Assembly: GCA_008632985.1 (NCBI GenBank)
Contig: QPGO01000066.1
Span: 1 to 64,000 of the forward strand
Reading direction: 5' to 3'
Length of the DNA: 64,000 nt
DNA from: Psammoneis japonica
Taxonomy: Eukaryota
The notes below the pieces were generated by a model. That model made no database searches and was not told the origin of the DNA. It saw nothing but the letters and a program-made list of their open reading frames with translations. Position numbers and translations under genes: made by a program. Below are positions 5,701-46,400 of this stretch, piece by piece; position 1 is the first letter of the stretch; each line of letters begins with the position of its first letter.

Positions 5701-5835
5701 TAACTCCCTGTCAATTTCAATGTTGAGTTCTAGCTTGCAGTTAAACGGGCGACCAATCCGTAGATGGCGGCGCTCGACCAGTGTTTTCTAGCTCTATGCA
5801 TCGTCTCAAAATATCTACTGACGGCAAAAACGGAA

Positions 5836-7092: not shown

Positions 7093-7630
7093 TTTTCCTT
7101 GGGTGCTTTGAAGAGCAATTATAGCTAGCAGCATGAATTTGTGAGACTCTCATTCATGTGTTACGATCTTTTGACAGCCGCGTCGCGGGGATTTGTCGAA
7201 GATTCCAGATTTCAATCCCGAATTGAGAATCATAGAGTCTAATCCCGCGAACTCGTTCAAGTCCCGCAATTTGGAACTATTAGAGTACGTTTATTTTAAA
7301 TTGACTGAACCGACGCCCAACTCTCCATTTCACATTCCAGCAAGCTATTAGGGCCTAACTTTACTACTAGAGTAGCTCTAGAGATTATACTACGTTCTCG
7401 AAGCGTTGTGGCGATGATGCGTGTCATCTCTATGCCAGGCCTATGTCACTCTCATACCTCGAGGCCAACAGATGATTGCACTTCTGCTGTGACAATTTTT
7501 CAGGAAGAGTAGTGAGTATCTCTAGTTTGTTCATAGTTGGCAGGATGATGAAAGCCTTTTGGTGTGACTGTGATTATAGATATATGTAGGGTTCTGAAGT
7601 TTTCGATATAGCACACACAAAGACAACAAT

Positions 7631-14439: not shown

Positions 14440-17055
14440 TCACGTTTCTGCAAACACTTCGACCATCTTCCCATTGCTTGACCTGGCCAGTTCTCGAGCA
14501 ACTGCCATCAAAAAATCGAACTCCACCTGCTTGAATGCACAAAGACTAACTTTCTTGAGTTCGTCATACCCTTCAAATTTCGCGATCCTTTCAACTGCAA
14601 TCTTTAAGGGCCTTTCCAAGTCTCCGCCAGCGCGGTGCCCTGCACTGATTAAGGAGAATCCAATCGCCTCTATGCCTTTATCCTTTGCGCAACCAAGGCT
14701 AAAGTCGTAAGCAGAACGGAGCAAGTAGTCCTTCTCAGTCAAGGTATCTTGACTGTCTCCCTTGGCATAGGACGGGCCAACCGCAAAGATGACGTACTCA
14801 ACGTTGAGATCCCCGTAGAACCGTTTTTCGATTGCGGGGCCAATAATTCTGGCTTGACCTGTCGGACACCGTATGTCGTCATCGGTCGATTCATCATCAA
14901 GCCGTTTCACGTGACGATGAAATTCACGACCTCCGGCTTCGTGGACAGCACCAGCCACCGACTGCAAGCATGGGCTACGGCAGGTTTCATTGGTGGTGCA
15001 AACAATGGCAGACGTTCCTTCCGAATTCAGATTTGAAAAGTCTGTCACTGCTGAGCGAGTGATACTTAATGTGAATTCGGGGTCTGCGTCCCCGTTTGAA
15101 ATAGTAAACGAATTCGTAGATCGTGACCATCCTTGAGTCCGCCCGGGTGAAGAAGAATCCTGATTGTCTCCTGAGACAGACTTTGGACTACAAGCTTGGT
15201 GTTCATCGTTTCGCCCCCCTTCAGCTTTTTCCTCGGCAATCTTTTCGTTCCTGATTTTTTCTTTGAGAATTTGCATCTCTGCACTGAGCACTTTGGCCCG
15301 GTCATGTTGCCCCAATTTATCTTCTTCGTCTCTGCGCACGTACAATTCTTTAAATCTCAAATCGAGCTCTTCCATTGGAGGGAGCACTTTTCGCAACTGC
15401 GCTAACTCATCCAATTCTACCTTCAGTTCAGCTGCTTGTCCGGGGTCCCCATCTTCTCGAGCATCCATGTACTGTCCATGGATTCGTTTCCACTGTCGTT
15501 CCAAATCGACGCGAGTGGTAAAGTTACCCCTTGGAAACTCTTTTCGTTCTGCTATTTTGATCAATTCTTCGTACTGCTTTGTAGTTATGACCTCCGCCTT
15601 AAAACAAATCCTTTGCGGGTTCCCCTCTCCAATCAGGGAGAATATATCCAAGCATCGTTTGGACATGGCGTCACAGACCCGTGTCGCAAAGGCATGGGGG
15701 TGGGGTTCTGGTTGGAGGGGAACCAGCAATTTCGCAAACGATTCTGGTGAAGCAATCTTCGTAGAATGCCCATTGCGCACAAGCTTGCACCGGCTGCCAA
15801 ACAGTAGAGCAGAAGCAAGCATCGTCAAAGGGCCTGGATCCAAACGGATTTTCGGTCCAAGGTTCTCGGATCGTATCTCTTGGCCAGAGGGATTCACGAG
15901 AACAATCGAAGTTTGAGATGGGTCGGCACGCATAATCTCAAGGGCGCAACGTAACTTTTGCGTTGATTGATTGGGCACACCTCGGCCATCGATGAATATG
16001 AGGGGTTTTCGCATACCACGTAACTGGCGTGCAGCATCATGGCAGGTTGCCAAGAATCCATCACTATCTTGCCGAACGTCGTATCGAATTATACCCTCCA
16101 TGACATCAGAAAGCGCCTCCAATGCATGAGTACCAGGGCACAGTTGCTGGGCAGATGGCAACCAAAAGATCTCATTGAAGAGAAACGCATCCTTGCGTTC
16201 ACCAATATAGGAACATACCGCTTTAGCTAGGGTTGACTTCCCAATTCCTGGCTCTCCAGAAATTTGAATGAATTTGTGGTCCTTGAGATTGCGAATAACG
16301 TCGTACATGGCCATCTCCCGACCAAAGATTTCGTCTGGAAACAAAGGCAGCAGCGCTTCTGCCTGAGGTGTGACGGATGTTCCGACATTGAAAGGCGGCT
16401 GGCTTTCGAAAAAGATCTGTACGTTGTGATAAGGGCTTGCTTCTGGCATCTTTGGTAGAAGCTCAAACTTGGAACTAGAGCCTCCCATTAGTCCCACAGC
16501 TTTCGTGGCCACGTTGAACGCCTGCCGCAAGTGCTGCCCACAGGCAAGGTGCAGATACAAGTTTTGTGTAAAATAAACACCCTCTGAATCTACTACTGCA
16601 TCATTACAGCAAACCACATGGGGTATTCCAGCTTCAACAAAAGCCTGTCCGACTTCAAGAGAGTTGCACGACGTTACAACAACAAGCTTCAAATGCTTTG
16701 GACCACTCGCGAAAAACTCCTTCAGCTCATCCACTTTCAGCGGGTGCACCGTCCCGACATCTTCCAGAGAAATGCAATCCTTTCCGCCGTGGCCATAGTA
16801 GTGTAACACACGGCTGTCAGACGCTGCGAGGATCGCCGAGAGCCTGAACACGGATGCCTTTTCAAACGATACTTGAATCCTGCGAGAGGTTTTGCTCTCT
16901 GCTTCGTCGATCGCTCTCAACAGCGATAGCTTTCCGTGTTCATAATCCGGCGGTTGAACAAATGGTTTGAGCTTTTGATCGTGCTTGTCTTTGTAAACTA
17001 AAGGGTGTGATTGAAGAACAATTATCCGATCACAAACGGCTTTCGTTTCTTCCAT
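14440..17055 (-). CDS. CHAT (caspase-like) domain + STAND/NB-ARC-like P-loop ATPase + coiled coil + macrodomain protein
   Basis: VLHYYGHG and VVVTSCNS (CHAT His/Cys positions), IFGRE...ISGEPGIGKST (Walker A), LIFID (Walker B), and VAGAVHEAGG...CPTGQARI...VIFAVGP...IGFSLISAG (macrodomain). Likely start MEETKAV at 17055; the upstream ORF extension runs into repeat DNA. Confidence 0.8.
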   Translation of the reverse strand: MEETKAVCDRIIVLQSHPLVYKDKHDQKLKPFVQPPDYEHGKLSLLRAIDEAESKTSRRIQVSFEKASVFRLSAILAASDSRVLHYYGHGGKDCISLEDVGTVHPLKVDELKEFFASGPKHLKLVVVTSCNSLEVGQAFVEAGIPHVVCCNDAVVDSEGVYFTQNLYLHLACGQHLRQAFNVATKAVGLMGGSSSKFELLPKMPEASPYHNVQIFFESQPPFNVGTSVTPQAEALLPLFPDEIFGREMAMYDVIRNLKDHKFIQISGEPGIGKSTLAKAVCSYIGERKDAFLFNEIFWLPSAQQLCPGTHALEALSDVMEGIIRYDVRQDSDGFLATCHDAARQLRGMRKPLIFIDGRGVPNQSTQKLRCALEIMRADPSQTSIVLVNPSGQEIRSENLGPKIRLDPGPLTMLASALLFGSRCKLVRNGHSTKIASPESFAKLLVPLQPEPHPHAFATRVCDAMSKRCLDIFSLIGEGNPQRICFKAEVITTKQYEELIKIAERKEFPRGNFTTRVDLERQWKRIHGQYMDAREDGDPGQAAELKVELDELAQLRKVLPPMEELDLRFKELYVRRDEEDKLGQHDRAKVLSAEMQILKEKIRNEKIAEEKAEGGRNDEHQACSPKSVSGDNQDSSSPGRTQGWSRSTNSFTISNGDADPEFTLSITRSAVTDFSNLNSEGTSAIVCTTNETCRSPCLQSVAGAVHEAGGREFHRHVKRLDDESTDDDIRCPTGQARIIGPAIEKRFYGDLNVEYVIFAVGPSYAKGDSQDTLTEKDYLLRSAYDFSLGCAKDKGIEAIGFSLISAGHRAGGDLERPLKIAVERIAKFEGYDELKKVSLCAFKQVEFDFLMAVARELARSSNGKMVEVFAET

Positions 17056-17352
17056 CTTCAGAGTCTGCGTCGATGGCAGTGGGGAAAACCGAGTCAATGT
17101 ATGATATTGCAGAATGTGAGGCTTCGTGCCTACAACGAACTGGTATTTTCTGACCTTGTGCTTGTCGCTTTTGTTTGCTGCGCTCCCCTCAGTGTCTATG
17201 ATGCTTGATGCTTGCTTTTTGTTACGGATGAGAACAAAAATCTTTCGATGTGTTCGCGGATATCTTTCATGGTACAAACTCCCGTCCATTTCTACGCAGG
17301 GACAGATTCCCGCACAAATTCTCACCGATGCGAGCAGGCAGCTCGCTCGCTC

Positions 17353-17440
17353 CAGAGGTGCATAAATCGTCTGTTGTCGCCCCGCGTGCAACGCACGAAT
17401 GCGCGTGTGCGAACGACAACAGACGATTTATGCACCTCTG
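17353..17440. mobile_element. 88-bp MITE with perfect 27-bp TIRs, hAT-like
   Basis: CAGAGGTGCATAAATCGTCTGTTGTCG ... CGACAACAGACGATTTATGCACCTCTG. GGCAGCTC occurs on both sides, the left copy followed by extra GCTC units. The homologous segment near 22050-22080 lacks the insert. Confidence 0.75.
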
Positions 17441-24899: not shown

Positions 24900-26120
24900 C
24901 ACAATGTCTCAATGTGTGCGCCAAAAAACAATGATGCCTTTGAGTTATCCTCGTCCTCACACCCAACCCCACTCCTCATCTCCTTGCAAAGATTGCGTCC
25001 TTCAAAGTGGTGGATCACACTTTGCATCTCTTGGCATCCAATGGCTCACATGTGGCGTCAATTGTGATGGATTAGATCCACAGCTGGACTTCAGTTGTGG
25101 CAGCAGTGATGAGATCATGGTTGTCAACATTCAAAGCAACAACAATCAAAGTCCGTCTTGCTCGCAGAATGGACGCAGCTTGCACAAATGCACAAACCAT
25201 GCCAAATTGGGCTCATTTGGAGGCTTTGCTGATGTGGAAGCAGACACTAGAATTCTGTTCCATTGCAACAGTTCTTCAGCTTTTGGACTGTTGGCTGAGG
25301 CATTGACCCCCAGGCAAGGTGGCCTCATGTGCCAATGGAACTCAAACTCTGTCACCCAAACAATTGGCATGTTTTACCAGGATTTTTCTGCAAGGAATTT
25401 GTCTCACGTTCCACAGATTGCAATTTCTCTCAATGCACTGCCACTGATTTTTGCACTGGTTCATTTCAAGTTGGCTCGTGTGTGATTCCCTCCTTCCCCT
25501 CTGTGTCCACAGAGGTGTCTCCAATTCCATCTGCTGGTGTGTCAAGACCAGAGACACCAAGGCCCACACCAAGATCCACATCACAATCCACTCCAAGGCC
25601 CACGCCAAGGCCCACAGATGCGCCTGCTCCAACAATCTTGGGTGCAGCCGTGTCAAGTGGACTTTGCAGCAGCAGATCCCGATGGACAAGTGGTGCCTCA
25701 ACGGATGTGAGCGGTGTGTCAAGCACTCAGGCCTGTGTTGAAGAACGCAGCAGTCATCAAGGTGGCAGTCTTGCATTCACCATGTTCTTTCCCTCCTGTC
25801 AAGAGGCACCACATGGTGTTCATGCTTTGCATCCACCCCGAAAGTTGAAGCTGGCACAACTGAGGATGGATGCTGGTGTGGATCTTTTCATGCTGTGAAT
25901 TTGGAATGCCCGGACATGTGAGTGTGCTGTTTTCTTGGACTTGCGCTGCATTGCACATGCCAGATGATCAACTGACAAATGCAGCATCTCTGTTGTTCGC
26001 TTGCACTCAGGTTTGATGCATCACCAACCACAAATCCTTCTCCCTTGATGCCCACACCAAGGCCCAACCTGTCTCCCTTGCTCCCCAATTCAACTCCATC
26101 TGGGACTCCTGGCTCCAAAG
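24900..26120 (+). pseudogene. Decayed surface/secreted protein remnant with Pro-Thr repeats
   Basis: RPETPRPTPRSTSQSTPRPTPRPTDAPAPT and SPTTNPSPLMPTPRP segments, with frameshifts and the TpA-loss signature. Confidence 0.4.
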
Positions 26121-26228
26121 AGTTGGGTCAAAGGCCCGCATCACACCTGCGCCCCAGAGATTTTACAACGATGGCTGGCAGTTTTGGATTGATGACCCAC
26201 CTGTTGTTTGTGTGAATGTGAAGACATC

Positions 26229-26681
26229 TGCAACACACAGCCACCAACAAGAGTCAATGCATCACGGCGACGTGTTGCAGCCTTTAAATGTCACAAAGGG
26301 CGTGACAAAAATGACCTTTTGTCTGCATGCATGCTGCGTTGTGAATTCACAGCGGAGTGGTTCATCGCAACCATTGGGCAGGAGGCCAGGGGTTCGAAAC
26401 CCTGAGTGGGAGTTGTCTGCAGCAACGTTGATCACTGTCGAAAGCGCAAAACTCTGTGCAGTTCTGCATGTTCCTTCGTGCGCACCGGTGCCCACACTGT
26501 TCCGCCAAAACCGTGCAGCGTCAGTGCACGTTAGCAAAGAGCCGCATGGACGCGTGACACATGGGGAGGAGTGCAACACACAGCTGCCAACAAGAGTCAA
26601 TGCATCACGGCGACGTGTTGCAGCCTTCAAATGTCACAAAGGGCATGACAAAAATGACCTTTTGTCTGCATGCATGCTGCA
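26229..26681 (+). mobile_element. TRIM-like non-autonomous LTR element (110-bp terminal repeats) with an internal tRNA-like segment
   Basis: Direct repeats 26229-26338 and 26572-26681 start with TG and differ at 4 sites. Polypurine tract GGGGAGGAG at 26563-26571. CATC flanks both ends. Confidence 0.8.
26343..26412 (+). ncRNA. tRNA-like / Pol III internal promoter (degenerate; not a functional tRNA call)
   Basis: A-box-like CAGCGGAGTGG at 26350 (TAGC... before TA>CA), a GCG/CGC D-stem, and B-box GGTTCGAAACC at 26391 with a T-stem. Confidence 0.55.
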
Positions 26682-28122
26682 CATCATCTGTCAAGGTCGT
26701 TGGTCACAGAGGGTCTTGTTTGTTGTGCTTGCTGTTGGTGACAGGCAAGATCACATGTCGCACCATGCCGCACTGCATGCAAACATTGGCAAAGACATTT
26801 GCACCCAGTTGTCCAGGGACTGCCGCACTCTGCACTGGCATCAACTGCAGCATGCCAACTGACGGCTCTGGGATCACAGGGTTGAGAAGGTGATCACATC
26901 ATAGAGAGACTGCACTGGCACACAACAACATGATGTGAAGTGAGAAAAAATGGATTGACTCAAATCATCCGCGGAGTTCATGCATGCATTGCAAAAGTTC
27001 CAGTCATGGCATTCTGTGAAAGGGGTCTCTTTTTGTCGGTCACCACCTTTTGCAAGGTCTGACGAGACAAAGACTTCAGTGATGAAAAACTGCTCTTGTT
27101 GTGTCTTGTAGAATCATTGATGCCACACATCAGAAAAACAGGGTGCACGACACTGCACTCTTCCCTTCCATGATTTGAGTCCTGAGAATCATGTGGGGTT
27201 CAAAAATTCAAAAAGGTTTTGGAGGCAAAGAAGGGAAACCCAAGTGTTGGGGAAAAAACCCTTTGCCTCAAGTCCGATGCAGAACAATGCACCAAACATT
27301 AAGTCGTTCCACCACATGAGGTGCACATTGAACCACAAGTGTGCCATTGGCATGTGCTGGAACAATGGGATGCAGACCATGTGCTCATGGCTTGAGCTTG
27401 GCAGGATCAGTGGATTTGACAAGGATTTGTCCACCAACTTGAAAATCGCAGGATTGTTGTTTGAAATTTGCTCTGCAGAGATTAGTGTTGACAATTGCTT
27501 GGCGATGTTCTTGAACAGCGGCAAGATCTGTCAGAGCTGGTGGGCCCAGTGTCATGTTGCATTGAAATGCCATTGCACCCGGCAAAATCTTGAGAGCACA
27601 GGATGCCGCACATTGCATTGCATGCATTGCTGTTGCCAATGTGTTGTCCACCATTTGATTGGCTTGTCCAATGTTCTGTGGAGGACAAACATGAAGTGAA
27701 GTGCACAAGATGTTCCCAACAGTTTGATGCACGCATTTGCATGCCACATTGGCTTGTGGGTTCCATGAAGTTGTCGGTGCATTGTCCACTCCTGCCTGTT
27801 GCAACATTGATTGAAATTCTTCTCCAATGAATTCTCCACCATTGTCATGAATGCAATGGTTGGGACGAGGATGACAAGACAACCAACAATTTTCAAATTG
27901 CTGAGCAATGTGAGACAAGGTTTTGTTTTCAATGCAAATGAGTTTGGCAACATTCAAGACAGCATCAACACAAGTCAAAGCATTGAACTCAATCTCATGG
28001 CCCTGGATGTCAATCTTCCAAGGACCAATGAGGTCAGCTGCTGCTTCATTCCATGGTGGCAAAGGTGCTTCACACTCAGGCAGGTTCCCACATCCAGGTC
28101 CCAAAGTTTTCAAACGTTGACA

Positions 28123-28518
28123 GATGCGTTCCAGACGCAGGTGGGAATCCGTGCGACATTGGGCCCGTGGACTTCTACGTGCGAGCTCCGCAGCAAAATT
28201 GTGCGGCAATTAAAATGTCAATGATCGCCAACAGAAAATGAGGCAATTTTGCGAATGCACAAACTCGCACATGATTGAAGTGCATCATTTTTTACTCAGC
28301 CAGTTGCATTCTTCAGACATTGAAGAATGTAACTGGTGCATTGTTGTTTCTATAAATTTGTCACATAAAACGTCTGGGGCTTCGCAAAACAGCGAGTCTG
28401 GACAATTTTTTTTAAATGTCACACGTAGAAATCCACGCACGAAACATGCGACGGATGACAAAAATTGTTGTTGTCACACGTCAGTGCTGCGAGCTCCCAC
28501 CCAGGGCTGGAACGCGTC
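28123..28518 (+). mobile_element. MITE family A copy 1 (396 bp), inserted in the Gypsy integrase
   Basis: Termini GATGCGTTCCAG...GGTGGG and CCCAC...CTGGAACGCGTC, with 4-bp TSD GACA. Removing it restores ...ADCQRLKTLGPG. Confidence 0.88.
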
Positions 28519-28689
28519 GACAATCAGCACAATGGGAATTTTCACAATTCTGATGCAGGACAGGATGATGAAAATGCGCGCCAACAGCAGAGTGCATTTG
28601 ATGCACTCCCGCATGATCCCATGACACCACCGTGTCATGTTGGGCAACAAAGCAGTTGGTGTGCAGATTTTCCACAAGGTTGGAGGATC

Positions 28690-29086
28690 GACGCGTTCCA
28701 GCCCCAGGTGGGAGCTCGCAGTGCTGTCGTGTGACAACAACAATTTTCATCATCCGTCGCATGTTTCGCACGTAGATTTCTATGTTGATGTTTAAAAAAA
28801 ATTGTCCAGACTCGCTGTTTTGCGAAGCCCCAGACGTTTTACATGACAAATTTATAGAAACAACAATGCACGCCAGTTGCATTCTTCAATGTCTGAAGAA
28901 TGTAACTGGCTGAGTAAAAAATGATGTGCTTCAATCATGTGCGAGTTTGTGCATTCGCAAAATTGCCTCATTTTCTGTTGGCGATCATTGACATTTTAAT
29001 TGCCGCATGATTTTACTGCGGAGCTCGCACGCAGAAGTCTGCGGGCCCAATGTCACATGGATTCCCACCTGTGCCTGGAACGCGTC
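28690..29086 (-). mobile_element. MITE family A copy 2 (397 bp), opposite orientation, inserted in Gypsy pol
   Basis: Termini GACGCGTTCCAG / CTGGAACGCGTC with 4-bp TSD GATC. Removing it restores ...HPNDPPTLWKIC. Confidence 0.88.
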
Positions 29087-31557
29087 GATCATTTGGATGA
29101 ATGCAACAACAAATCACAGGGCACTGATTCACATGTTCAACAATGAAGTGCTTGGGATGCTGTTGTTGCATGTCACTCAGTTCTCCATCAACAAATTGAT
29201 GTTCTTGGATCCGCTGCACAGTTGTTGGGTTCTGCATTTCATCAAGGGAAGGACAGCTCAAGAACAATTCACACAATTTGGGATCATCCACAAAGAAGGA
29301 GCAGAAGGGAGATGGTTCTTCATGACGACAGTAAAAATGAGATGCGAGGTCTGGTTTGTTGATTTCCTCTTCTTTGTGAGGCAACAGAGCAGTGTCAATC
29401 ACCTTAAAATTAATCAGTTTGCCCTTGTTTGGAGCGCACTTCCCTTCCGCAGGAGGTTCCATGCAAGGCAATTGTGAAAAACAATCAGCCAACAGGTTGT
29501 CCTTGCCGTCAATGCATTTGACGGTTAGAGTGAAGTCTTCCAAGAAGAGTTGCCACCTGAGCACTTGTTGAGAATTGAGTGTGCAAAAGGTGAGATTTTT
29601 ATGATCGGCAAAAACAGCACAATCAGTTCCAAGTGACATGGTGCGAAACTCTTTGAAACACATTGCCACGTCCAACAGTTCCTTTTCAATGGTGGAACAA
29701 CTTTGTTGCACTGCACTGAGCTTTTGCAACCAACAGGCCACTGGCTTTCTGTCTTGCATGATCACGGCTCCCATCTGACAGTCCAAGAAATCAGCACAAA
29801 TGTGGAAGGGCTTGTTGTGATCTGGATGAACCCAAAGGGTGCCATCCAGCATCAATGTCTTCACATCTTCAAAAGCTTGTTGATGCTCAGGAGTCCACTC
29901 CAGTTTGCTCTTGCCTGTTAACTTCATAAGCAGAGCAAGCACATGAGAGCAACGGGGGGCCACATGTTGCAACAACAGGCAATGGCTCTGAAAAAAGATC
30001 GCAGTTGTGTCATGGTTTGTGGAGGTTGCATTTGCAGCACTGCATCTGCTTTCATTTTCCATGGTCGAACTCCTGCAGGCACAAGCCAATGGCCCAGAAA
30101 ATCCATCTCTTGGATGCACCACTTGCATTTGAGCGGATTGACCTTGAGATCATTTTCCTCTAGCGCAGATGACAACTCATCAAATCAACGCATGTGAGCA
30201 CAAAACGAATCATCAAATTGAGCAATGTCATCAACACAGGTCTCAACATCAAGTCCATTCGCCACTTTCTTGATGACAGCTTGAGTGACATCAGGAGCAG
30301 TTTTCAAACCCATGGCCAGTCAACAGCATCAAAACTTCCCAAACAGAGTGACAATGGCACACAAATCATTGGATTCTTTGTCCAGTTCAATGTGGCAGCA
30401 GAACATGGTGAGGTCCAATTTGGTCAAGCATTTGCATCCCAAATGCCGGTGAACAACATCTTGAATTGTTGGCAAAGGGCACACCTTCTGCTTGAGCACT
30501 TTGTTCAACTCTCGGAAATCAGATGCCCATCAAACTCGTCCATCTTTCTTGGGAGTTGCAAAAGTTCTAGCCACCCATTCCATTGGTCCGCTGGTTCCAA
30601 GACACCAACACATCACACAAGTGTTGCAGTTCTTTCTTGAAAACTGCTTTGTCTTATTTGGACACTTCACAAGCTTTAGAGTGGAAAGGCGTTGCATTGG
30701 GATCAACTTCCAAGTGGACGGTCTCGTGTGGATGTCTGCCAAGTGTTCCATCAAAAAGGGTTTCATGCTTCTCAAGCACGGTTTGGAGCTCATTGCGTTG
30801 CTTGTGAGTCAAATGAGTTTGAGATTGCACTGCCTTTGCAATTGACACCTTCTTGCACTTGGCGTCCAACACAAACAATTGACCTTGCAGGTCCTCATCG
30901 TCTTTGTCTTCCTGGTGATCATCAAGCACATCCAACCAGTTCTGAGCTGAGTTCCAGTGATTGGATTGCTTCATCGGGATCAACACATCCAGCCATTTCA
31001 TGATCTCAAACAAAAAATCAAGTGCTGTTCCAGCCTTGGAAAGGAAGTCTTGGCCCAACATCATGTCACATTTGCACGGAGTGTCAAAAACTTGAGCAGC
31101 AATGCCATCAACTTGTTTGGACTTGTCAAATTTGGGTGACACCCAGATGATTCTTCATGACAACACATTGGGAGGATTCGCATTGTCCAGCCACCATCTG
31201 GAAGCTCAGTTGTCCCTCATCATTCATGGTCAGATTGGCTCCCTTTGGCAGAACTTGAGAATGAACAAGGGTGTCAACACCCCCTGAATCCAACAACATG
31301 CGCAACATCCTCTCACTTTCTTGATTTTGAATTGCACGTGCTGCCATCAACGTTGCAGGCACCCCATTCAATGTTTTGGGAGTTGCAGTTTTTGGGGTTG
31401 GTGCAGCACACTCCAAAGCACCACCCAAATTTTCTTCATTCATGGCATGAGATTCCATCAGGTCTCCCACATCTTCTTCAACATTAAAACACATGTTCTC
31501 ACATGAAACACAAAAAGATTGAGTGACACACTCCAACTCAGGCACTTCCGTCCCTTG

Positions 31558-32721
31558 TCAATTGTGCCAACTTTGTTGGCCTTGAGGGAAACAACCACTC
31601 TGATTGCACCCATTTCCACCTTGCATCTTGCAAGGCCCTCCTTGATCAAAATGGTGCAACTCCATTTGCCAGCCACCAGGAGGAGCTGCTCCAGCTGGAT
31701 TTCCATGGCCTTGGGCATCACCACTGGCTTGGGTGCCATTTTGATTTTGACAATGGGATCCATTTCCCTGAGAATTCTGGGAATTGTTGCAGTTGCCGTG
31801 ACCTCGGCCTCCACAACTGCCTTGGTTGCCGCAGCCTCCTTGACCATGACCTTGGAAGTCACCACAACCTCCTTGGCCTTGCTGTCCTCTTCCTTGATGA
31901 TTCCCTTGTTGGCCTCCACCACGACCTCCACCATGACCTCCTCCACGGTCTGACCTTGGTTGACCATTTTGGCTTTCCGGATTCAGGGTGCAATCCTTCC
32001 ACTTGTGATTGTGGTCAGTGTGCACTGGACACTTGGCTTCCAGGTCAACTCCACCGCTGTTGCCTGGAAGATGCCTTGAAGCTTGAGATGAAGGACCACT
32101 GCTGATCCTCTTCTTGTCTTGCTTCTTGTTGCTGCTCTTGTTGGCAAAGAATCTCTTGTTGTTCATGTGACTGCTGATCTCAACAAGGCTGTCGTTGGCT
32201 GTCGAACATCCCACACAAGCACGCATTTCACGCCAAGGACAAGGAAAACTCTTGAACGTCATTTTTTTCTTCTGGGCCTCGTTGGCTTGGGGAGCATTTC
32301 CTGGCAACTTGTTGACATGGCAAATCAAGGTTTCCATGCAATCAGCATGTGCCTGTGCTTCCAATTTGAACAGTTTTTTCAAGGTCAGCAGATGCTCAAT
32401 CATGGTGTCATGCGCTTCATCATCACAATGGGGCAAATAAAAACGATTTGTCTCCTGATCAAAATGCACAACAGTCTTGTCAGCATCATCAACAGGATCA
32501 GTCAAATTTGCCTGCTTGTCCTCAGCTGCATCAGCCAACACTTCTTTGAAATTGTCAAACAATTCCTCTCCGGTTGCAAACTCAAATTTCACGGCAATTT
32601 TACAAAAACAATCTTCAACAAATGACAAGGCTTCAACACCATGAGCACCATCAAAACATGGACACTTCCTTGTATGAGCACTGCCATCATCATGCAACTG
32701 AGTCAACTTCACCTCCTCCAA
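31558..32721 (-). pseudogene. gag: Gypsy gag remnant
   Basis: 387-aa ORF with a CPVHTDHNHKWKDC zinc-knuckle-like motif and a Gly/Gln-rich tail, just inside the 5' LTR. It contains a single Tyr. Confidence 0.75.
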
Positions 32722-35700
32722 ATCAGAATGTTCAAACTCAGCTTCATGGCTGGTGCAAGGATGTTTTCAATGATTCACTCATTGTGGAAAATAGAACACA
32801 GTTGCTCAACAGTCCTTTCCAGGGACTCTGCCTTTGACTCCAAATGACGTGCTTGGCTTGCCAAATTCTGTTTGTGTCATTTACGCTGTTGCACTTGTTT
32901 CTGATGCTCAACAACCCAAACTGCTGCTCTTGCTCGCAGTTCTCATTTCTCACATTCAGTCAATTTATTTGCATTGTTTCCAGTCTCCATCCAGTTCTTT
33001 AAATTGACCGCAATTACAGTGCAAGGTCCAACAAGATAAAGACTTCAGTGACAACAAAATTGCAAGCAAAAGACCAAGGTGACGAGGTCACTTTCGGCGA
33101 AGCCCGTTGCAACAGCTCTCGTCATGTCTCACAGAATCACCAATGCTGTGTGTCAGAAAAATGGGGTGTGCGACACTGCACCTTTGCCGCACAGCACACT
33201 GCACAACAGAACCAAAGAACATTTCAATTGAGTCATGGCACTCTAATCTGTCAAAGGTTGCAGCAAAGTGTTGCAGGGCCCCATGTCGCAAATCACCACA
33301 CAATGATGAAGCAAGACAACATGCATCATGTCCCAATTCCCACCGGCACTCTCCTCTCTCCCATTGTTCACTGGTTGCGCTTTGTTTGGCTTTGTTCATT
33401 TTTCAATGCACATGGATGGCCACAGTCAGGCGGGTGAGGCATTCCCAGCAGTGGTGACTTTGTCAAGCGCAGCAAAGAAGAAGAAGAAGAGAAGAAACAC
33501 AATGGCACCAAAGTGCTCCAAAAAACTTCCCATGACAACAATGATGCATCTCCTCACAAGAAGAAGAAGAAGAAGAAGAAGAAACAAAGAAAGGCAAAGA
33601 CACCTCTTAGCACCACCAAACCAAAAACAGTTCATGACTTGCATCGCACGCATCAAAAAAGCAAAAGGAGTGTGGTTTGGACAAAATGCTGCCAACAAAC
33701 AATGGACGTGCAGTGTCAGCAAGCTGTGGTGATGATTCTGGCAAGAGGAGGCAAAAATGCATCTCACACCAAGACAATCTACAAGCAACTGCCCTGCACA
33801 AACAACAGCAGCAACAAAAATGCCAGGACGTCAATGGTGCAAAAGATTGGAGTGGGCACACAGGCAGACACTGAGGAAAAGACAAGAAGTGCAAATTTCA
33901 CAGTGGCACAAATCAAAGCAGATGCTCCCAGGAGCTGCAAGAAGAGAAGGTTGAGGGGGGGGGGAGAAAATTGTGATGAAGAAGCTGGTGTTGACATCAA
34001 CCACATTCCCCTGGAGCCTTTGCTTGCTGTCATCTGCCTGACACTTCCACAAGCAGTGTTGGCAATGAGCCAATGAACACTTGGCTCACAAAGTGCCAAA
34101 GCTTTCAGCGCACACTTTGTGCACTTAATTTTGGCCTGGCTGCAAAGTGTTTGTGCTTTTCAGTGTGTGCTTTGCAGCTGACATCATCCAACATGACACT
34201 CACATTGAGCGCCAATTTTGCACATCTGCAACCTGGTTCATTCTTTGGACATTTCTCATCTGATGTGAGCCCTTGAGCTTCAGTCATTTGCAGAGCTGAT
34301 GTCATCATTTTGTGGTTTGACTGGAGCTCTGAAGCTCAGGCATGCTGCAGCAAGTGTTGTTGACATTGCACATCACCCATCACAACACATGCAGGCTGGT
34401 TGCACTTGGAAATCAAGTGTGTTTGCATGCATCAGAGTCAGGCCAAAAATGACAGACCAGCCATCCAATGTTTCATCTGATTCATTGCAGTCAGACCACA
34501 CACCATTTGACCAATTTGCCACATGCAACATGGGGGAATTCAAGCACGGCATTGCTTCTTTCTTGTTGTGATCATTTGACCAGGAGAATGAAAGCAACAT
34601 TTGGAATGAGTGATCTCACAAGCACAGTGCCCACATGTCAATGATTTTCTTGCCAAAGCAATCTGATGCATTGCAGTTTGTTTTTTGCAAAATGAAATTC
34701 TGGCTGTTGTCATCTGCTGGTGTTCTGTGGATGTTGGAGTTTTTGTTGATTGTGCTCATGTTGAAAAGGAAAATGATGCTCACAGCATCTTCAAATGAAG
34801 CATTTGTCCCTTTTTGATTGGATTGGCACAGTTGATGTGCTCTCCTGATGTCAGAAGGGCTTGGTTGACTGCTGCACCTGTTCTTGCATGGGCCGCACAT
34901 TGACAGTTGTGCTTGATTGCCGGGACAGGGACTGTGCAATGGCACATGATGGGGGCAATGCTGGGAGCATCAATGTGACAACAAATCAAGTTTTTACAAC
35001 CCGCAATTCATGGAGAAGGATCTTCTTTTGAAGAATCTGTGAAACAAGTGTGCAAGAGCTCATCATGTTGGAAATCAAAAAGTCAACATTCTGTGCTTTG
35101 GTTTGACAAAATGTGCACTCACTGCCAAAGAACAAATCTGTCATTCATTGCCAGCGGATGTTTCCCATGCTTTTTTGCTTTTGTTTGACTAAAAAATTGC
35201 TGCTGATTTTCCTTCAAGCCAAAGGATCTCTTCTTCTTGGTGATTCAATTGTGTCAAGTTGTTTCAGGTCTGACTCCTGCAAAATGGGAATTGTTGTGTG
35301 AGGTTTGAGTGCTGCAGTGCAAACCAAAAAGGGATCATGCTTGTTGTGCAAAACTGTGGTGGATGTTCATGGTGGAAAGTGGAGGCCCACTGTTCAAGGG
35401 ACCATGAATGGATGCAACACACAAAGGTCAATCAAGATTTTGATTCCTTTTGTTTTGAACAACCCCCCCAACAAACCAAGGAATGTCTTCTCAGCGCCAA
35501 TTGCATCAGATGAGGCTCTTTGTGGACTGCACATGGTGGAATCTGCAAACTAGTTGCTGCAAGAAAATGCAGTTGGACTGGACACTTGCGAAGCTCTTGG
35601 TTTCTCCACTGCAAGAAACATTCCTGAAATGCCAGTTGCTCATGTGACACTTTGACGGACAAGGTGCAAGCTCCTTCAGAACTCATTTTTGTGGCACTGG

Positions 35701-41841: not shown

Positions 41842-43496
41842 TGCACCAAGCCAGCTCTGTGTCTGATCTCAAAGTGAGCAAGAGAGGTCATTGCTGTGCA
41901 AAAGTGAAAATTGTGAGGAGTTGTCTGGCACTCGTTTGTTCTGCTCGGAGTCTGAACCTGAGTCAGCTTCGGCAAACTGCTCTGAGTCAGGTCTCGAAGA
42001 TGTCTTTTGGATCTTTGAGAGCCGATGTTTGCAGAGTGCAGGTGAGCGCATTGCACTTGCTTCCCCAAGAATGTTGCATCCTCACCCACGTCGGGTGGGA
42101 AATGTTCTAGATGCCAGGCGGATTGTGGGGATCCTGTTGTCAATTTCTGTGAAAGACAATTCGCCCGGTTGCTCCAGCTCCTCCAGGTGCGTGACCTGAG
42201 TGCATCTCGGATTGTTTTCAAGAAAATGGATTTTTGGCTTGGCGAGTCAACACCAGCTCTGCACGGCCCTCTTCATGCGGGTTGTTTTCATCTTCCACGG
42301 GAGTTTCTTTGTTTGCGTTGTCGAAGTCCCTGACGGCATCACCACGCACTGAGTCACGCGTCACATCAAATTTTGCTCGTTCTGTTTCACAAGGCTCATT
42401 TTGGGCGATGTGGTTTATTTCTTCCTGGAAACGGCACCACTCTTCGGGTTTGTTGTTTTCCGTTCCGGCGAAGCACTTGATTTTACATTCCGTGATGCCC
42501 GAATCTTCTTGCACTCAGGGTCATCTTAGAGAGCGTGAGTGACAAACTCTGCTTTGCTTAATTTTTTTGTCTGTTTTTCTGGGAGAATTGAAATCGGCAG
42601 AACAACGTGAGACACATTTCAGCAATGCGCTTCCAAGCGACAATTTGCGTTGATCTGCACTGCTGTCGTTTGCGAGATCAAAACGCTGCAAGTGATGTCA
42701 CTGTGCACCAAGCCAGCTCTACGTCTGATCTCAAAGTGAGTGAGAGAGGTCATTGCTGTGCAAAAGTGAAAATTGCAAGGAGTTGTCTAGTGCTCGTTTG
42801 TTCTGCTCGGAGTCTGAACCTGAGTCAGCTTCGGCGAACTGTTCTGAGTCAGGTTCGAAGATGAACGCTTTCAGTCGATCAAATGGGGGACTGCTGTGGA
42901 ACCTGGTATGAATTCATGCACATGCTTCACCGTGTTGTAAAATTGACAGCATGACGAAAGCACGGTGGAAAGCCACAACTGCTTCTGACCACATTTGACA
43001 ATTGGAAGAACACTCCACATAATGACAGTTGTCCTTTGACATGTCTGACAATGAGTTGCGCTAGTTTGATGTCGGAATAGAAGTCATTCGTCGATCACAG
43101 CTCTGCAAAGCATCGCCAGATAATTGCCAGCGATTTGCACGGCAATTTGGCGAGTAATTTCCCGTGCTTCACCGTGGTGAACTTGGGAATTGTCCAAAAC
43201 AGTCCTTTTGACAAAATTCGGAACGAAAGCTTCTGCACACATGAGAAAACATGCATCTAGGACAAGCTAGATGACGTCACTTTCCTTCCAATTATCATTT
43301 GGACGTTCTCCGCCACTTGCCTTTGTCATCGTGCTTTCACCACATGATTTTGATTTACAAGACGGTGAAGCACGGTCCGCAGAATTCTGCGCTGTTTGAG
43401 TGCCGCAGTCCCCCACTTGCCCGATTTCGAAAAACTGAAAGCGTTCATGTCTTTTGGCAAAGAGCCGATGTTTGTAGAACAGGTGAGCGTGTTGCA
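41842..43496 (-). mobile_element. Internally deleted LTR retrotransposon (LTR - gag-like fragment - LTR)
   Basis: LTRs at 41842-42055 and 42704-43496 (the latter split by a MITE) read TG...CA. TSD CCTTT at 41837-41841 and 43497-43501. Pyrimidine tract after 42055; gag-like ORF at 42218-42514. Confidence 0.85.
42863..43446. mobile_element. 584-bp non-autonomous DNA element nested in the LTR, 2-bp AT duplication
   Basis: TIRs GAACGCTTTCAGT / ACTGAAAGCGTTC and subterminal GGGGGACTGC / GCAGTCCCCC. The uninterrupted sister LTR reads CGAAGATGTCTT. Confidence 0.8.
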
Positions 43497-46400
43497 CCTT
43501 TTCGTTTGATTTTGGTTGGCACCATCAAACCGGTTTGACGGAATGAGCATTGCCCGACGACGAACCCCCCATTGACACGGATCCGGGAGACTTTCCAAAC
43601 GAAGCTCAATTCAATTGCTCATCTAAAGATTGGATTCCCGTGACACTTCCTCATGATGGTTTGATTGCCAGTGCACCATCGGAACAGGCGGGTCCGATTG
43701 GTTGTTCGGGAAAGTCGTGCATTGCTCGGCATGCACTGTGGCATCGAAAGAAGTTCTCTCCACCCCAAACGCGGAACTCGTCCAGTGTGTGGCTTGACTT
43801 TGAAGGAGCCTTTCGCAACACGACGGTGCACTTGAATGGTGTCAAGGTACAAAATCATGAATGTGGCTGTGCACCGTTTCGTGTCCGACTCGACGACAAG
43901 GTTACGTTCGGAAGAAGCTCCTCCTCAACGAATGTTGTTGCCGTTATTGTGATCCCGACAATGGGGATCAAGGCTCTCGGGATGGTGGTGTGAAGGCGGT
44001 GGCTTGCATCGATCCGTCAATTTGATCAAGATGCACAAGATTCACATTGAACCGGATGGGCTGTTTGCGCACAGCAGCAACATTACGAAAAGCAAGCCAT
44101 TGCGAATGTTCGAGTTACGATTGAAAACCAATCAAACGAACAAGCAAGCATCTGTGTCGGTTTCAGTTTACAGCATCCCAACGGTGCATTGGCTAGGAGC
44201 ACAAGAGCAATCAAACGTTGCTTTCAGCTGCGCAAGGCTCGACAACGACTGCAACCCAAGCTTGTGGAGCTTGTCCAATCCGACCCTCTACTCTGTTGTC
44301 ACCAAGGTTTTGGACTGCAACGACCACTCGAGTGTCTTGGATTCATCTACAGTCACTCACGGTTTCCGAACACAGTGCTACGATGCCAATCCAGGGTTCT
44401 TTCTCAATGGCCAGCGCTGCAAAGACCGTGGATTTGGTCAACAATTTTGCCGTGGTGGGCATGGCGGCACCGGATCGCATCAAGCTGTTTCGTGCCCAGG
44501 CATTGCGGTCGATCGGTGGCAATGCACGGCGCATGCCGGTTTGTCCGCGGTTTCCCCAAGTCTGCCACGTTTTGGTTCCGAACACAATGGCTCCTGCCGA
44601 TCCCAGACGGACGGCATGACAAGACATTTTTCACCCACGGCAAGTACGAAGTGCACATTGTCGAGTTGTGGGAATCTCCCGACAGTTGGAATGAAACCAA
44701 GGGCAACACTGCGCGGGTCATTCATGCACACTCGGATGCTCCATTCATTGAGTCACTAGTCAATGGCAAATCTCAAGGATCCAAACCTGTCATTCCAATG
44801 TCAACAGGACCGGGATCCGATGCCGAGTGGACCAACGTGCCACAGGAGGCTTGTTGACTGACTGCGGTTGCTCACGACGACATTGGAGACAGCTCGCCCA
44901 AGACAATTGATTCACCAATGCCAAAGCAAGTAGACTTACGATTAGCATTGATGCACCGCCTGAAGAAACAGGAACTGGCAAGGTTTTGCTTTTGGATGGT
45001 CAAGATGCTGCTTTGCTCAGAGTGTCCGTGTTGGATGAAAACAATCGACTCTTGATTGTGGCAACAAGCAATGTAATGTTTCAGGTCATCAGTGGTCCAG
45101 GCATTGTTCAGGGTGCGGGAAATGGTGATGCTCATGGTCACGAACCCAACAACGCTCCTTGGCATTCTGCGCACCACAGCTTGGTCAGGGCCGTAATTTG
45201 GGTCACGTCTGTTGCAGGACGATCGGAGAAGGAGAGAGCTGCGCTACAACAAGTCGATGTTGATGGTCCCATGAGTGCGATTGCTCAAAAGGACGTGTCA
45301 AGTTATCTCCACGAAAGTGACACAGTTGTGGAAGCTTGATCTCCAGGTTTCGCGCCTGTGAGAGTGACAATTCCGACCACGGTTGATGCATCCGAGTCTT
45401 CCGTCTTGTCCGTTGCGGAATCTACGGCTGGCAATCCAGTTGACTTTTTCGGAAGATCGACAGAGATTGTGATGGATTCATTCTATGCTGAGGAGTGGTG
45501 TAAGATTCCTGTAGTTTTGCAGTGTTGGCACTCTCATGATGGGGCCCAGGCGTCAATCTTTAAGAACAAAGAAGCTGCCTCCATTGTCCTCAGGGCGAGA
45601 CCGGCAGTTTGCATCAAATGGGCAATTGGTGAGCTCTGACATGACACAGTGCCATCTTGGGATGGAAGATTCCATCCAAATTTTTTCTTGGCTCCGCACC
45701 ATGTGGTTTTGGTGTGCAATGCTCATCTGTGTGTCCAGCCAGCAGACGGGCTGTTAGATCCTTGTGTGAGGTGCACTTGTCAACTTTTGAATGACAATTG
45801 TTGGACTGTGTGCATCTGTCAGGCAGCAAAAACCACCCTGTCTTCTTGCCAAAAACTGCCCTTCTTGCAGTTGACACGATGCAGCTTTCCTGAGAAATGC
45901 TGGCACTTGAGTTGTCACAACCTTGCATCAACAACAGTCTTCAGGCTGGGGGGCAAAGGAGACAGCACATGGCAACAAATGTTGTCATCATGCTCTGTGT
46001 TGTCTTGTGATGGGACAAAGAAAAGCAGGAGCTGCCAGCTGTCACTGACTTCATTTGGCAGAAATGGGTTGAGCACATTTTTCATGTTAGCAAGTGCAGC
46101 TGTGTGTTTTTTTGCACACACAATGCAAGAAGTCAAGTGCATTGACTTTGTTGTGATCATTGATTGACTCATTTCTGCAAGACCAGCAAGGCCAAAAATT
46201 GAGCATGGCATTTAAAAATGCTGCACAACTGTGTGCTGTCAACTTGGCAGCTGCCTTGGAGTGCCAGCTTGGCTTGCAAGCTTCAAGGTGCTTCTGCCTT
46301 CTGCCCAATGCGTCATCAGCAGCAAAAGAAGAGAACATCATCAGCAGCCAGCAAAAAAAGCCCAGGAGAAAGAGCAGGGCTTGGCAGCACTTTGCATTTT

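Follow-up and report, generated by a model that had tools for sequence, protein, structure and literature searches.

Hypermutation targeted at TA dinucleotides is rare, and one alga is so far on record. In the mutation accumulation experiment on Bigelowiella natans (Mettrop et al., bioRxiv, 2026; 10.64898/2026.01.13.699255), two integrated viral regions are reported to have acquired 231 mutations, of which 230 were A>G or T>C and fell without exception on TpA, and the preprint describes TpA-depleted, CpA- and TpG-enriched clusters that are enriched in reverse-transcriptase domains. This integrated viral DNA is the closest precedent for the locus analyzed here, a stretch of 64,000 nucleotides that we call the window. 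The two systems, the viral one as described in the preprint, both change A:T to G:C at TpA to give TpG or CpA, form depleted/enriched clusters at the 1-kb scale, and act on single-copy DNA, and the targets of both include reverse-transcriptase as well as unannotated sequences.

The window contains a large hypermutated tract (Table 1) with 0-6 TA per kb, as compared to ~40 per kb in the normal parts. The tract also has 4-21 CG per kb (0.07-0.5 of expectation) and ~81-135 per kb each of TG and CA, while the four YpR dinucleotides sum to ~242 per kb, the same as in normal DNA. By the cut-offs used for B. natans in the preprint (TpA o/e <= 0.43, CpA and TpG o/e >= 1.52), 21 consecutive 1-kb segments (18001-39000) pass. 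The genes in the window have long, intron-poor frames. Given these frames and a host glycosyltransferase for which no relative above 44% identity was found among 5.8 billion protein clusters, the organism is probably not B. natans.

A dead Ty3/gypsy-type element in the tract

The tract encloses a dead Ty3/gypsy-type retrotransposon on the minus strand (27051-33180), with the domain order RT-RNaseH-integrase, a polypurine tract and a 5-bp target duplication. The gypsy LTR pair proposed in the first-pass annotation is real, with slightly shifted limits and a shared duplication. The coding remnants vary in quality. The integrase core aligns with residues 307-607 of the relative P0002 at 55% identity (tblastn) and has a weak match to Pfam rve (E = 0.0022, 18.6 bits vs a cut-off of 32.6), 24 relatives were found for the RNase H region, and 30150-30660, when translated directly, contains 5 stops. 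The Gag-like frame had no match in a Pfam search.

Table 1. Positions of the tract, the element and its parts in the window
Feature	Position	Strand	Remark
Hypermutated tract enclosing the element	17500-39000		~21 kb; edges sharp within ~250 bp
Target-site duplication CCTTT, left copy	27046-27050		read directly; same as 33181-33185
3' LTR, 107 nt, TG..CA ends	27051-27157	-	76.6% identity to 5' LTR over 107 columns
Polypurine tract GGAAGGGAAGAG (element strand)	27158-27169	-	read directly; adjoins 3' LTR
Integrase core region, degenerate	27274-28203	-	tblastn with PF00665-bearing relatives
MITE-like insertion copy 1, within integrase region	28111-28530	+	far less mutated than the element
Integrase zinc-finger piece, between both MITE-like insertions	28531-28679	-	aligned with residues 269-295 of P0002 and 384-445 of P0011
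MITE-like insertion copy 2, in opposite orientation to copy 1	28680-29098	-	92% identical to copy 1
RNase H region and linker	29100-29957	-	Pfam RT_RNaseH_2 E = 1e-18, RT_RNaseH E = 6.8e-17
Reverse transcriptase region, frame breaks and stops	29957-30872	-	tblastn with PF00078-bearing relatives P0007, P0012, P0013, P0016, P0017
Gag-like open frame, 402 aa, Gly/Gln-rich	31558-32766	-	position and composition only
5' LTR, 161 nt, TG..CA ends	33020-33180	-	~54 nt without counterpart in 3' LTR
Target-site duplication CCTTT, right copy	33181-33185		read directly; same as 27046-27050

The kb containing the two MITE-like insertions has 18 TA and 46 CG per kb, and copy 1 itself 21 and 62 per kb. A contig from another copy of the retrotransposon family jumps 28072-28553, across copy 1, in a way that resembles an empty site, and there is a contig jump of 28615-29098 that spans copy 2. 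In these younger insertions about half of the TA is gone and the loss of CG is slight. They differ from each other by 30 transitions and 2 transversions. Although only 8% apart, they have double differences of the TG/CA kind at 9 places, along with 21 common CG and 7 common TA, which requires very hot sites or an earlier family history; by our own reading of the alignment, 5 of the 9 lie in R_Y contexts.

Direction and timing of the changes

Alignment of the LTRs over 107 columns gives 25 differences, of which 23 are transitions and 2 are transversions. As many as 22 of these differences interconvert YpR dinucleotides, which make up 59 of the 107 columns (binomial P = 5e-4), in agreement with the earlier remark that the pair differs almost only at YpR sites. 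The LTR strings quoted in support of that remark, including CACACA versus TGTGTG (27124-27129 and 33147-33152), were all found as written. The dinucleotide differences comprise 9 TG/CA, 1 CG/CA, 1 CG/TG, and 2 CA/TA. TA is retained in one of the two copies at 2 sites, and CG at 3. Since half-converted and unconverted CG sites of the pair number 3 and 2, respectively, we infer a CG origin for about 2-3 of the 9 TG/CA sites and a TA origin for the others.

The coding remnants inform on direction. At 20 positions where the relatives conserve Tyr, the element has 13 Cys (TGY), 4 His (CAT), 2 Phe, and 1 Thr. Because no Tyr is retained and Cys or His has taken its place at 17 of them, the resolution of ancestral TA into TG/CA, originally suggested for the LTRs, is supported when the element is taken as a whole. 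It is only part of the story, as the 99 amino-acid replacements explicable by one transition include 38 of TA type and 43 of CG type (18 are other). Of 34 conserved Arg positions, 10 are still Arg in the element (with a CGN codon in 8 cases), 10 are Gln or His, and 10 are Cys or stop, and 20 of 28 CGN codons were converted to one of the latter classes. In the comparison with other family copies, 12 of the 40 difference rows listed, out of 1091, have CG where the window copy has TG or CA, 6 are sites with the opposite product (TG here and CA in nearly all other copies, or the reverse), and none of the 40 shows TA. The other copies may have mutated independently or may descend from one already mutated copy. 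CG ancestry, named beforehand as the case that would count against TA, applies to part of the sites without being the sole cause.

The element retains few TA (3 in 1060 nt, 21 in 4082 nt), as do its flanks, with 4 in each of 26000-27045 and 33186-34200. The flanks are single-copy by depth (59, vs 500-3400 summed over the element). Since the LTRs share one target duplication and single-copy DNA outside the element is equally TA-depleted, the mutations are post-insertional, as the first-pass annotation had claimed; the strand coordination suggested along with this is not supported (see below). The signature is also present in MITE-like DNA elements and a kinase pseudogene. The changes thus occurred in place, after insertion, from TA and CG to TG/CA. 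Between 41.5 and 45.5 kb there are 0-5 TA per 250 bp and a normal number of CG (10-20 per 250 bp). TA loss and CG loss are therefore separable processes, and the MITE-like insertions, which lost much TA and little CG, point the same way.

Sequence context and possible causes

The survival of TA depends on its neighbours: 0.04-0.05 for TAY, 0.15 for TAG, 0.22 for TAA, 0.01 for RTAY, and 0.49 for TTAA (survivors, chi-square P = 3e-22). Overall, survival is ~0.1 for TA and ~0.3 for CG, the latter ranging with its flanks from 0.19 (TCGA) to 0.83 (GCGC). The products obey the context rule, with CA gained at ATAA-type sites and TG at CTAC-type sites, and the 13:4 ratio of Cys over His fits T-A-Y alone (P = 0.39 against an expectation of 70%). 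The preference is not uniform, since the TA surviving at 42001-45000, within the TA-only zone, are not poor in TAC (both strands pooled: TAG 24, TAC 20, TAA 19, TAT 7).

We think it likely that two context-specific transition processes hit the whole tract in place after the insertion of the element. The faster one would change TpA to TpG or CpA, i.e., A:T to G:C on either strand, with a strong preference for A before a pyrimidine. The slower one would change CpG to TpG or CpA, favouring T or A before C, and is most likely the deamination of putatively methylated cytosine in silenced DNA. Both would share one sink, TG/CA. With every site resolved separately in the two copies, the once-identical LTRs would come to differ chiefly in having TG or CA. 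Judged by analogy and by the context preference, a TadA/ADAT-like enzyme may deaminate adenine in DNA at the TA step, and a silent chromatin state may be what targets the tract. In the table of a review (PMC10661471), the ADAR context is 5'UAG and that of TadA/ADAT2 is 5'ACG, and T-A-Y fits the latter better.

A less probable origin of the TA step, yet one that deserves consideration, is modified thymine (5-hydroxymethyluracil, 5hmU, or a base-J-like derivative) at the TpA of silenced DNA, which would pair wrongly with G and so produce T>C at R-T-A. Its predicted outcome is identical to that of adenine deamination, as a change of A at T-A-Y and a change of T at R-T-A in the complementary strand would be indistinguishable in sequence. 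In dinoflagellates, 5hmU is described as replacing thymine mainly in TA and TC, and its loss as de-repressing transposable elements (PMC11572971). However, TC is not visibly affected here (T>C before C in 0 of the 18 replacements classed as other). Moreover, neither such a modification nor an enzyme for it is known from the organism, and 5hmU:A pairs are not known to be strongly mutagenic.

It is doubtful that neighbouring TA sites were resolved on the same strand, in processive single-strand tracts, as the first-pass annotation had proposed; such runs were the hallmark that it had looked for, and strand-coordinated mutation clusters are on record in vertebrates (PMC4866542). The observation on the LTRs is accurate: the left LTR has TG at the first four of the 9 TG/CA sites and CA at the remaining five. 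These two runs have P = 2/126 = 0.016 given the composition and 0.035 unconditionally (at most one switch), both values being uncorrected for a pattern picked by eye, post hoc. The LTR pair departs in this from the other repeat pairs (Fisher P = 0.02): the pattern does not recur in nine such pairs, which together give 12 neighbours of the same type and 19 switched ones (6 and 9 among those at most 26 nt apart, counted by hand). The runs test on TG versus CA outcomes, put forward as a check, leans slightly towards coordination at TA-type polarised sites of the pol region (n = 38; 13 runs vs 17.4 expected, z = -1.69), but not at CG-type sites (n = 43, z = +0.56) nor at all 81 (z = 0.0). The lag-1 autocorrelation of TG/CA in the tracts (0.029) is nearer to simulations of TA-only coordination (0.023-0.038) than to independence (0.009 +/- 0.011), but it is 0.038 in normal DNA of the window, and the 0.06-0.12 predicted by joint coordination of TA and CG over at least 10 bp is not seen. 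Adjacent YRYR products are of the same type in 53% of cases (z = 1.9), a figure inflated by (TG)n/(CA)n repeats, and the Cys:His ratio is already explained by T-A-Y. Any tract signal would be erased by many sparse rounds of mutation. Strand processivity is unnecessary for explaining the data.

We give very little credit to ADAR-like A-to-I editing of the element RNA before reverse transcription, where the mutations would have arrived with the copy. The preference of ADAR for a 5' U/T suits TA (PMC10661471; 10.64898/2026.01.13.699255), but editing is contradicted by the differences between LTRs of one insertion, which it cannot produce, and by the single-copy flanks, MITE-like DNA elements and kinase pseudogene that bear the same signature. 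Moreover, the strands are hit about equally and the 3' neighbour is Y rather than G.

Equally improbable is an artefact by which modified TA and CG bases of silent DNA are mis-called in a genome that keeps them, even if palindromic modified sites read off either strand would yield exactly TG or CA. The window letters are no local assembly slip, since a public DNA run has contigs of single-copy depth (56-73) that match them over pieces of 452-728 nt, with 0-2 differences. This run is not a mere copy of the assembly, having CG where the window has CA at the flank sites 26920 and 26984. The element also carries frame breaks and stops, and the B. natans precedent was measured by Illumina reads (10.64898/2026.01.13.699255).

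Finally, the decay of methylated CG as the source of every TG/CA difference, which would account for the CG deficit of the tract, the CG-type replacements, the 12 listed rows with CG in other copies and the 3 LTR sites keeping CG in one copy, is ruled out by the Tyr codons and the TA-only zone, and also sits badly with the deeper depletion of TA and the 2 LTR sites that keep TA in one copy.

Comparison with known systems

The editing of LTR retrotransposons by vertebrate APOBEC is alike in being a deaminase-type hypermutation of LTR retroelements, but is described as acting on C in single-stranded cDNA during reverse transcription, with G>A on one strand (PMC4866542). In the window, TA (and CG) are the targets, both strands are affected after integration, and runs are not demonstrable. 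The decay of 5-methylcytosine at CpG in silenced repeats resembles the CG>TG/CA changes in the same tracts, best seen in the Arg codons. Here, it would be only the slower half of the change, with a marked flank preference and a putative methylation.

Repeat-induced point mutation (RIP) of fungi is similarly regional, dinucleotide-specific and defence-like, wrecking transposable elements in place by transitions and entering their flanks, a comparison also drawn in the Discussion of the B. natans preprint (10.64898/2026.01.13.699255). Its direction, as described, is the opposite: RIP changes C:G to T:A, mostly CpA to TpA, and raises TpA, whereas in the window TpA is destroyed and CpA/TpG increase. 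In addition, no dependence on duplication is seen in the window, where single-copy flanks are hit.

Relative to B. natans, as reported in the preprint, the window is near saturation (TA o/e of 0.0-0.1, against 0.45 in the NCLDV region), and the changes cover about half of its 64 kb, as compared to 124 clusters in a genome of 95 Mb. The terms CpG, LTR, retrotransposon, trinucleotide, and processive are absent from the main text of the preprint. The window differs from that report in that the process can be seen on an LTR pair with its target-site duplication, accompanied by CpG loss and with a readable T-A-Y preference.

Extent and composition of the tracts

The dinucleotide composition of the window is bimodal. 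Normal DNA, with its usual TA content, stands beside tracts, i.e. hypermutated stretches poor in TA and rich in TG and CA (Table), and the four YpR dinucleotides (TA, CG, TG and CA) sum to the same ~242 per kb in both. TpA o/e is 0.0-0.1 in the tracts, with CpA and TpG o/e of 1.5-2.2. The tract edges are sharp: across 17.5 kb, TA/CG counts per 250 bp fall from 6/21 to 2/2, and across 39.0 kb they rise from 2/1 to 13/5. If clusters are defined as in B. natans, by at least three consecutive 1-kb windows with TpA o/e of at most 0.43 and CpA+TpG o/e of at least 1.52 (TG and CA being scored separately here, not summed), they are found in 21 consecutive windows (18001-39000), and also at 46001-48000 and 55001-61000.

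Features of the window, with positions, strands and remarks
Feature	Position	Strand	Remarks
Normal DNA			TA ~40 per kb, CG ~55 per kb, TG and CA each ~75 per kb
Tracts	~4.0-5.8 kb, 17.5-39 kb, 45.5-48.5 kb, 55-61 kb		TA 0-6 per kb, CG 4-21 per kb, TG and CA each ~81-135 per kb; figures for 17.5-39 kb omit the kilobase containing the MITE insertions
Paralogous glycosyltransferase genes	2634-3887, 5848-7093		74% identical DNA, normal composition
Insert between these paralogues	4001-5800		1.8 kb, fully hypermutated; 0 TA and 0 CG in 5000-5499
CHAT/STAND/Macro frame	14443-17427	-	995 aa, unbroken; CHAT protease, STAND NTPase and Macro domains
109-nt direct repeat	26229-26337, 26572-26680		spacing 343 bp, 96% identical
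Target-site duplication CCTTT	27046-27050, 33181-33185		identical on both sides of the element
3' LTR	27051-27157	-	starts TG, ends CA
Polypurine tract GGAAGGGAAGAG (element strand)	27158-27169	-	adjoins 3' LTR
Integrase	28203-27274	-	tblastn of relatives; Pfam core weak
MITE-like copy 1	28111-28530		integrase zinc-finger region
MITE-like copy 2	28680-29098		inverted relative to copy 1, 92% identical, ~150 bp away
RNase H	29957-29100	-	tblastn of relatives and Pfam
RT	30872-29957	-	tblastn of 24 database relatives
5' LTR	33020-33180	-	starts TG, ends CA
Extra piece of 5' LTR	33052-33110		~54 nt
TA-only zone	41.5-45.5 kb		TA 0-5 per 250 bp; CG normal, 10-20 per 250 bp
Glyco_hydro_2-like frame	43953-44756		in TA-only zone
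LeuA_dimer-like frame and unannotated frame, beside the kinase	55473-56549, 58049-59002	-, +	0% Tyr
Protein-kinase frame	56553-57836	-	428 aa; Pfam Pkinase E = 2e-39; 0% Tyr
MITE-like copy 3	60297-60662

One stretch, the TA-only zone, has lost TA and kept CG, and it looks like either an earlier stage or a domain struck by the TA process alone. Because TA is low and CG normal there, TA loss is a separate process, one that is ahead of CG loss. The composition of the young MITE-like insertions (TA 21-24 per kb, CG 57-62 per kb) fits this order. Biased gene conversion was rejected as an explanation, since GC is not raised in the tracts (0.44-0.53) and TA alone is affected among A/T contexts.

The near-absence of TA over tens of kb leaves no Tyr codons and almost no TAA or TAG stops, and the loss of these stops opens frames of 100-400 aa in all six frames, by which gene finders would be misled into over-calling genes. 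Thirty open frames of 100 aa or more overlap 26.5-33.7 kb, and the open frames of the tracts abound in Cys, His and Gln and contain no Tyr. Pfam searches of 24 further open frames in or beside the tracts gave none with a transposon or viral domain (0/24); a conotoxin match to one frame was below the cut-off and was taken as noise from the Cys enrichment. The tracts contain the gypsy element, MITE-like copies and repeats, plus unannotated DNA and a Tyr-free protein-kinase frame, in which Cys or His occupies the usual kinase Tyr positions. Since the three frames at 55473-59002 all lack Tyr, the process also struck non-transposon genes, be they pseudogenes, duplicates or foreign DNA. In normal DNA there are frames that run unbroken for 995, 697, 504 and 437 aa. 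The longest has an immune-receptor-like architecture and terminates less than 100 bp from the border of the 21-kb tract. Between the glycosyltransferase paralogues, also in normal DNA, there are few TG/CA double differences (TG in one copy, CA in the other): 3, compared with 51 single-step YpR differences. No relative of the host glycosyltransferase exceeded 44% identity in the protein collection searched, and the family's only named relative, a distant one, is from the diatom Fistulifera. Together with the share of the window that the tracts take up, these features suggest a species that is probably not B. natans.

A gypsy-type element and the direction of change

The main tract encloses an element that is, judged from its sequence, a degenerate LTR retrotransposon with the Ty3/gypsy order RT - RNase H - integrase. 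It has direct LTRs of the TG..CA type, and its target-site duplication lies within the 4-6 bp range of this group. RNase H-like Pfam domains were found in its frames (E = 1e-18 and 6.8e-17), the integrase core match is weak and below the cut-off (E = 0.0022), and the RT part is interrupted by frame breaks and 5 stops. The only named relative of the RT, again a distant one, is from the diatom Ditylum; such diatom relatives are no more than a hint of the lineage. By eye, no tRNA primer-binding site is recognisable next to 33019, and no second DNA-level copy of the family was found within the window. The extra piece of the 5' LTR retains 4 CG and partly resembles the LTR start; the ~54-nt length difference reflects either an insertion or partial duplication in the 5' LTR or a deletion in the 3' LTR.

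The changes arose after insertion, as the first-pass annotation had proposed: the two LTRs of one insertion differ, and the DNA beyond the target-site duplication is equally TA-poor, with 4 TA in each ~1 kb of flank. The further proposal, that the LTRs differ almost only at YpR sites, was borne out as well. The 107 aligned columns contain 25 differences; 23 are transitions, and 22 swap one YpR for another, against 59 YpR columns among the 107 (P = 5e-4). Counted as dinucleotides, they comprise 9 TG/CA, 1 CG/CA, 1 CG/TG and 2 CA/TA differences. Divergence between LTRs does not serve as a clock in such tracts. LTR sites have no outgroup, and the ancestral share of CG was estimated from a per-copy CG conversion of ~0.71 (20/28 CGN). 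The LTR pair retains CG in one copy at 3 sites and in both copies at 2, which implies ~10 ancestral CG sites, such that among the 9 TG/CA sites ~2-3 would be CG-derived and roughly 6-7 TA-derived. A 6-bp micro-inversion, which would make TGTGTG of CACACA in one step, was set aside as unsupported. In the 109-nt repeat, the four differing bases make one each of CA/CG, CA/TA and CA/TG.

The direction of change was read from the element frames aligned to relatives, at 482 positions with at least four relatives aligned and at least 60% agreement. None of the 20 conserved Tyr is kept: 13 are now Cys (TGY), 4 His (CAT), 2 Phe and 1 Thr, so that 17 of the 20 codons show the A:T>G:C change at TpA that gives TpG or CpA. 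A functional reverse transcriptase and integrase cannot be without every conserved Tyr; TA must therefore have been present formerly and then destroyed. Of the 34 conserved Arg, 10 remain (8 with a CGN codon), 10 became Gln or His, 10 Cys or stop, and 4 something else. Overall, 99 of the 191 changed positions are explicable by one transition, divided into 38 TA>TG/CA, 43 CG>TG/CA and 18 of any other kind. Two processes, TA>TG/CA and CG>TG/CA, thus operate in the element. The ancestral TA proposed initially stands in kind, on the lost Tyr and the 38 TA-type replacements, and fails as the sole source; conversely, the CG ancestor named as the opposing case is real for the 43 CG-type replacements, and the TA source stands beside it.

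One public DNA run, and no RNA run among those listed, contains the stretch, and it allowed a comparison with other copies. Depth is 59 in the flanks (single-copy), sums to 500-3400 in the element and reaches a summed 17,000-118,000 in its MITE-like parts, against ~60 for single-copy DNA, which suggests that the MITE-like family has hundreds to thousands of copies. Its members are ~400 bp long with terminal inverted repeats; copies 1 and 2 lie head to head, and contigs of other copies of the gypsy family skip each of the two insertions. Unique-depth contigs have 0-2 differences from the window over 452-728 nt. Two sites in single-copy flank, 26920 and 26984, have CG in the run where the window has CA (depth 54.2 of 54.2), which looks like a strain or haplotype polymorphism of CpG-decay type. 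The near-identical unique contigs and these two differing sites argue against a base-calling artefact, and also against the run simply duplicating the assembly. All run contigs together differ from the window by 878 transitions and 213 transversions. Among the 40 listed of these 1091 difference rows, 12 have CG in other copies and TG or CA in the element, 3 are reversed, 12 make up 6 TG/CA flips and 13 are other changes; none of the 40 listed has TA in other family copies. At the 6 flips the element differs from nearly all other copies. Either the other copies descend from one that was already mutated, or TG and CA interconvert via short-lived TA or CG.

Strand choice and sequence context

The first-pass annotation had further read the LTR differences as processive tracts on single strands. 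The pattern on which this reading was built is present as described: taken in order, the 9 TG/CA sites read four TG then five CA in the left LTR and the mirror image in the right, hence 2 runs (P = 2/126 given composition, 0.035 unconditional, both uncorrected for selection by eye). The generalisation is not supported. TG/CA double differences in nine other repeat pairs of the window have 12 same-type and 19 switched neighbours, and all 81 polarised pol sites give z = 0.0, while the 38 TA-type sites form 13 runs where 17.4 are expected (z = -1.69) and the 43 CG-type sites give z = +0.56. By inspection, TG and CA are no more unbalanced per kb in the tracts than they are in normal coding DNA, and this measure was dropped as a test. 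Adjacent YRYR gains are 14.3 per kb for TGTG and CACA against 12.5 per kb for TGCA and CATG (z = 1.9), the same-type class being inflated by simple TG/CA repeats. At lag 1, the TG/CA series has an autocorrelation of 0.029 within the tracts, compared with 0.038 for normal DNA. When conversion of the window's normal DNA was simulated, independent strand choice gave 0.009 +/- 0.011, coordination of TA alone 0.023-0.038, and coordination of TA and CG 0.06-0.12. Joint coordination of TA and CG is excluded by the observed 0.029; for TA outcomes alone, this tract-wide test over 64 kb has low power. The LTR run is a single post hoc hint of strand coordination.

MITE-like copies 1 and 2, only 8% apart, share 21 CG and 7 TA and yet have 9 TG/CA double differences. 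By our own reading of the alignment, five of the nine have R_Y contexts, where both strands are hot; this helps to explain the double differences and does not settle them. Copy 3 also has TG or CA at these sites, so that it does not polarise copies 1 and 2.

The survival of TA in tracts relative to normal DNA depends on the 3' neighbour, at 0.04-0.05 for TAY (A followed by a pyrimidine), 0.15 for TAG and 0.22 for TAA (chi-square P = 3e-22), with extremes of 0.01 for RTAY and 0.49 for TTAA. The products follow: CA is gained where TAY is on the lower strand only, and TG where it is on the upper only. The rule is not uniform, as surviving TA in the TA-only zone is not poor in TAC. CG survives least where T or A precedes the C (TCGA 0.19) and best in GCGC (0.83). 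A T-A-Y preference also predicts that Tyr codons give more Cys than His, because the coding strand always reads TAY and the opposite strand only where a purine precedes; the observed 13:4 agrees with the 70% expectation (P = 0.39).

A 3' pyrimidine preference discriminates between candidate deaminase families. A review table gives 5'UAG for ADARs and 5'ACG for TadA/ADAT2 (PMC10661471), and T-A-Y lies nearer to the TadA/ADAT2 context than to that of ADARs. A chemical alternative, in which the TA step passes via thymine modification, is a fair one: passages of a report on dinoflagellates place 5hmU preferentially in TA and TC and describe it as helping to silence transposons (PMC11572971).

Comparison with known hypermutation systems

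Hyperediting of RNA by ADAR followed by reverse transcription would give alike LTRs, changes on one strand and a 3' G, whereas here the LTRs differ at 25/107 columns, the flanks are affected, both TG and CA are produced and the 3' neighbour is a pyrimidine. Clusters of the APOBEC/kataegis type have same-strand neighbours more often than by chance; here the LTR pair shows 2 runs in 9 sites and the nine other pairs 12 same against 19 switched. Fungal RIP changes C:G to T:A and raises TpA while lowering CpA and TpG, the opposite of what the tracts show (TpA o/e 0.0-0.1, CpA/TpG 1.5-2.2). It is also confined to duplicated sequence, whereas flanks of single-copy depth (59) are equally depleted here (26.5-33.7 kb covered).

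In a full-text search of the literature, the only report of directed A:T>G:C hypermutation of a genome at TpA was a 2026 preprint on B. natans (10.64898/2026.01.13.699255). According to its main text, 231 of 302 new nuclear mutations in mutation-accumulation lines fell in integrated giant-virus and virophage regions, and 230 of those 231 were A>G or T>C changes, every one at a TpA site, with a rate of ~6e-7 per site per generation in some lines only, a de novo rate ~1000-fold above that of the remaining genome. The same text describes 124 TpA-depleted, CpA+TpG-enriched clusters, an enrichment of RT and DDE domains in TpA-poor coding sequences, and an ADAT2-like DNA adenine deaminase as the authors' proposal. 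Insofar as its main text goes, CpG, LTR, retrotransposon, trinucleotide and processivity are not mentioned (10.64898/2026.01.13.699255).

The window is a new, saturated instance of this very recently described kind of hypermutation. Beyond the text of the preprint, the LTR pair and the conserved codons show that TA was changed to TG/CA and that this happened after insertion, and there is in addition a 3' pyrimidine preference and a slower, separable CpG decay. We regard it as possible, though rather doubtful, that TpA-directed DNA editing is a main genome defence in a second organism besides B. natans, erasing nearly every TA from transposons, pseudogenes and single-copy surroundings in sharp domains, with a T-A-Y motif pointing to a TadA/ADAT-like DNA adenine deaminase, and preceding CpG methylation decay independently of it. 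If so, DNA adenine editing would be a widespread protist defence, similar to RIP and opposite in direction, possibly with the short same-strand bursts hinted at by the LTR pair. In B. natans the 124 clusters are spread over 95 Mb, whereas tracts make up about half of this 64-kb window. The preprint describes an early stage, not yet saturated, and the end state is seen in this window.
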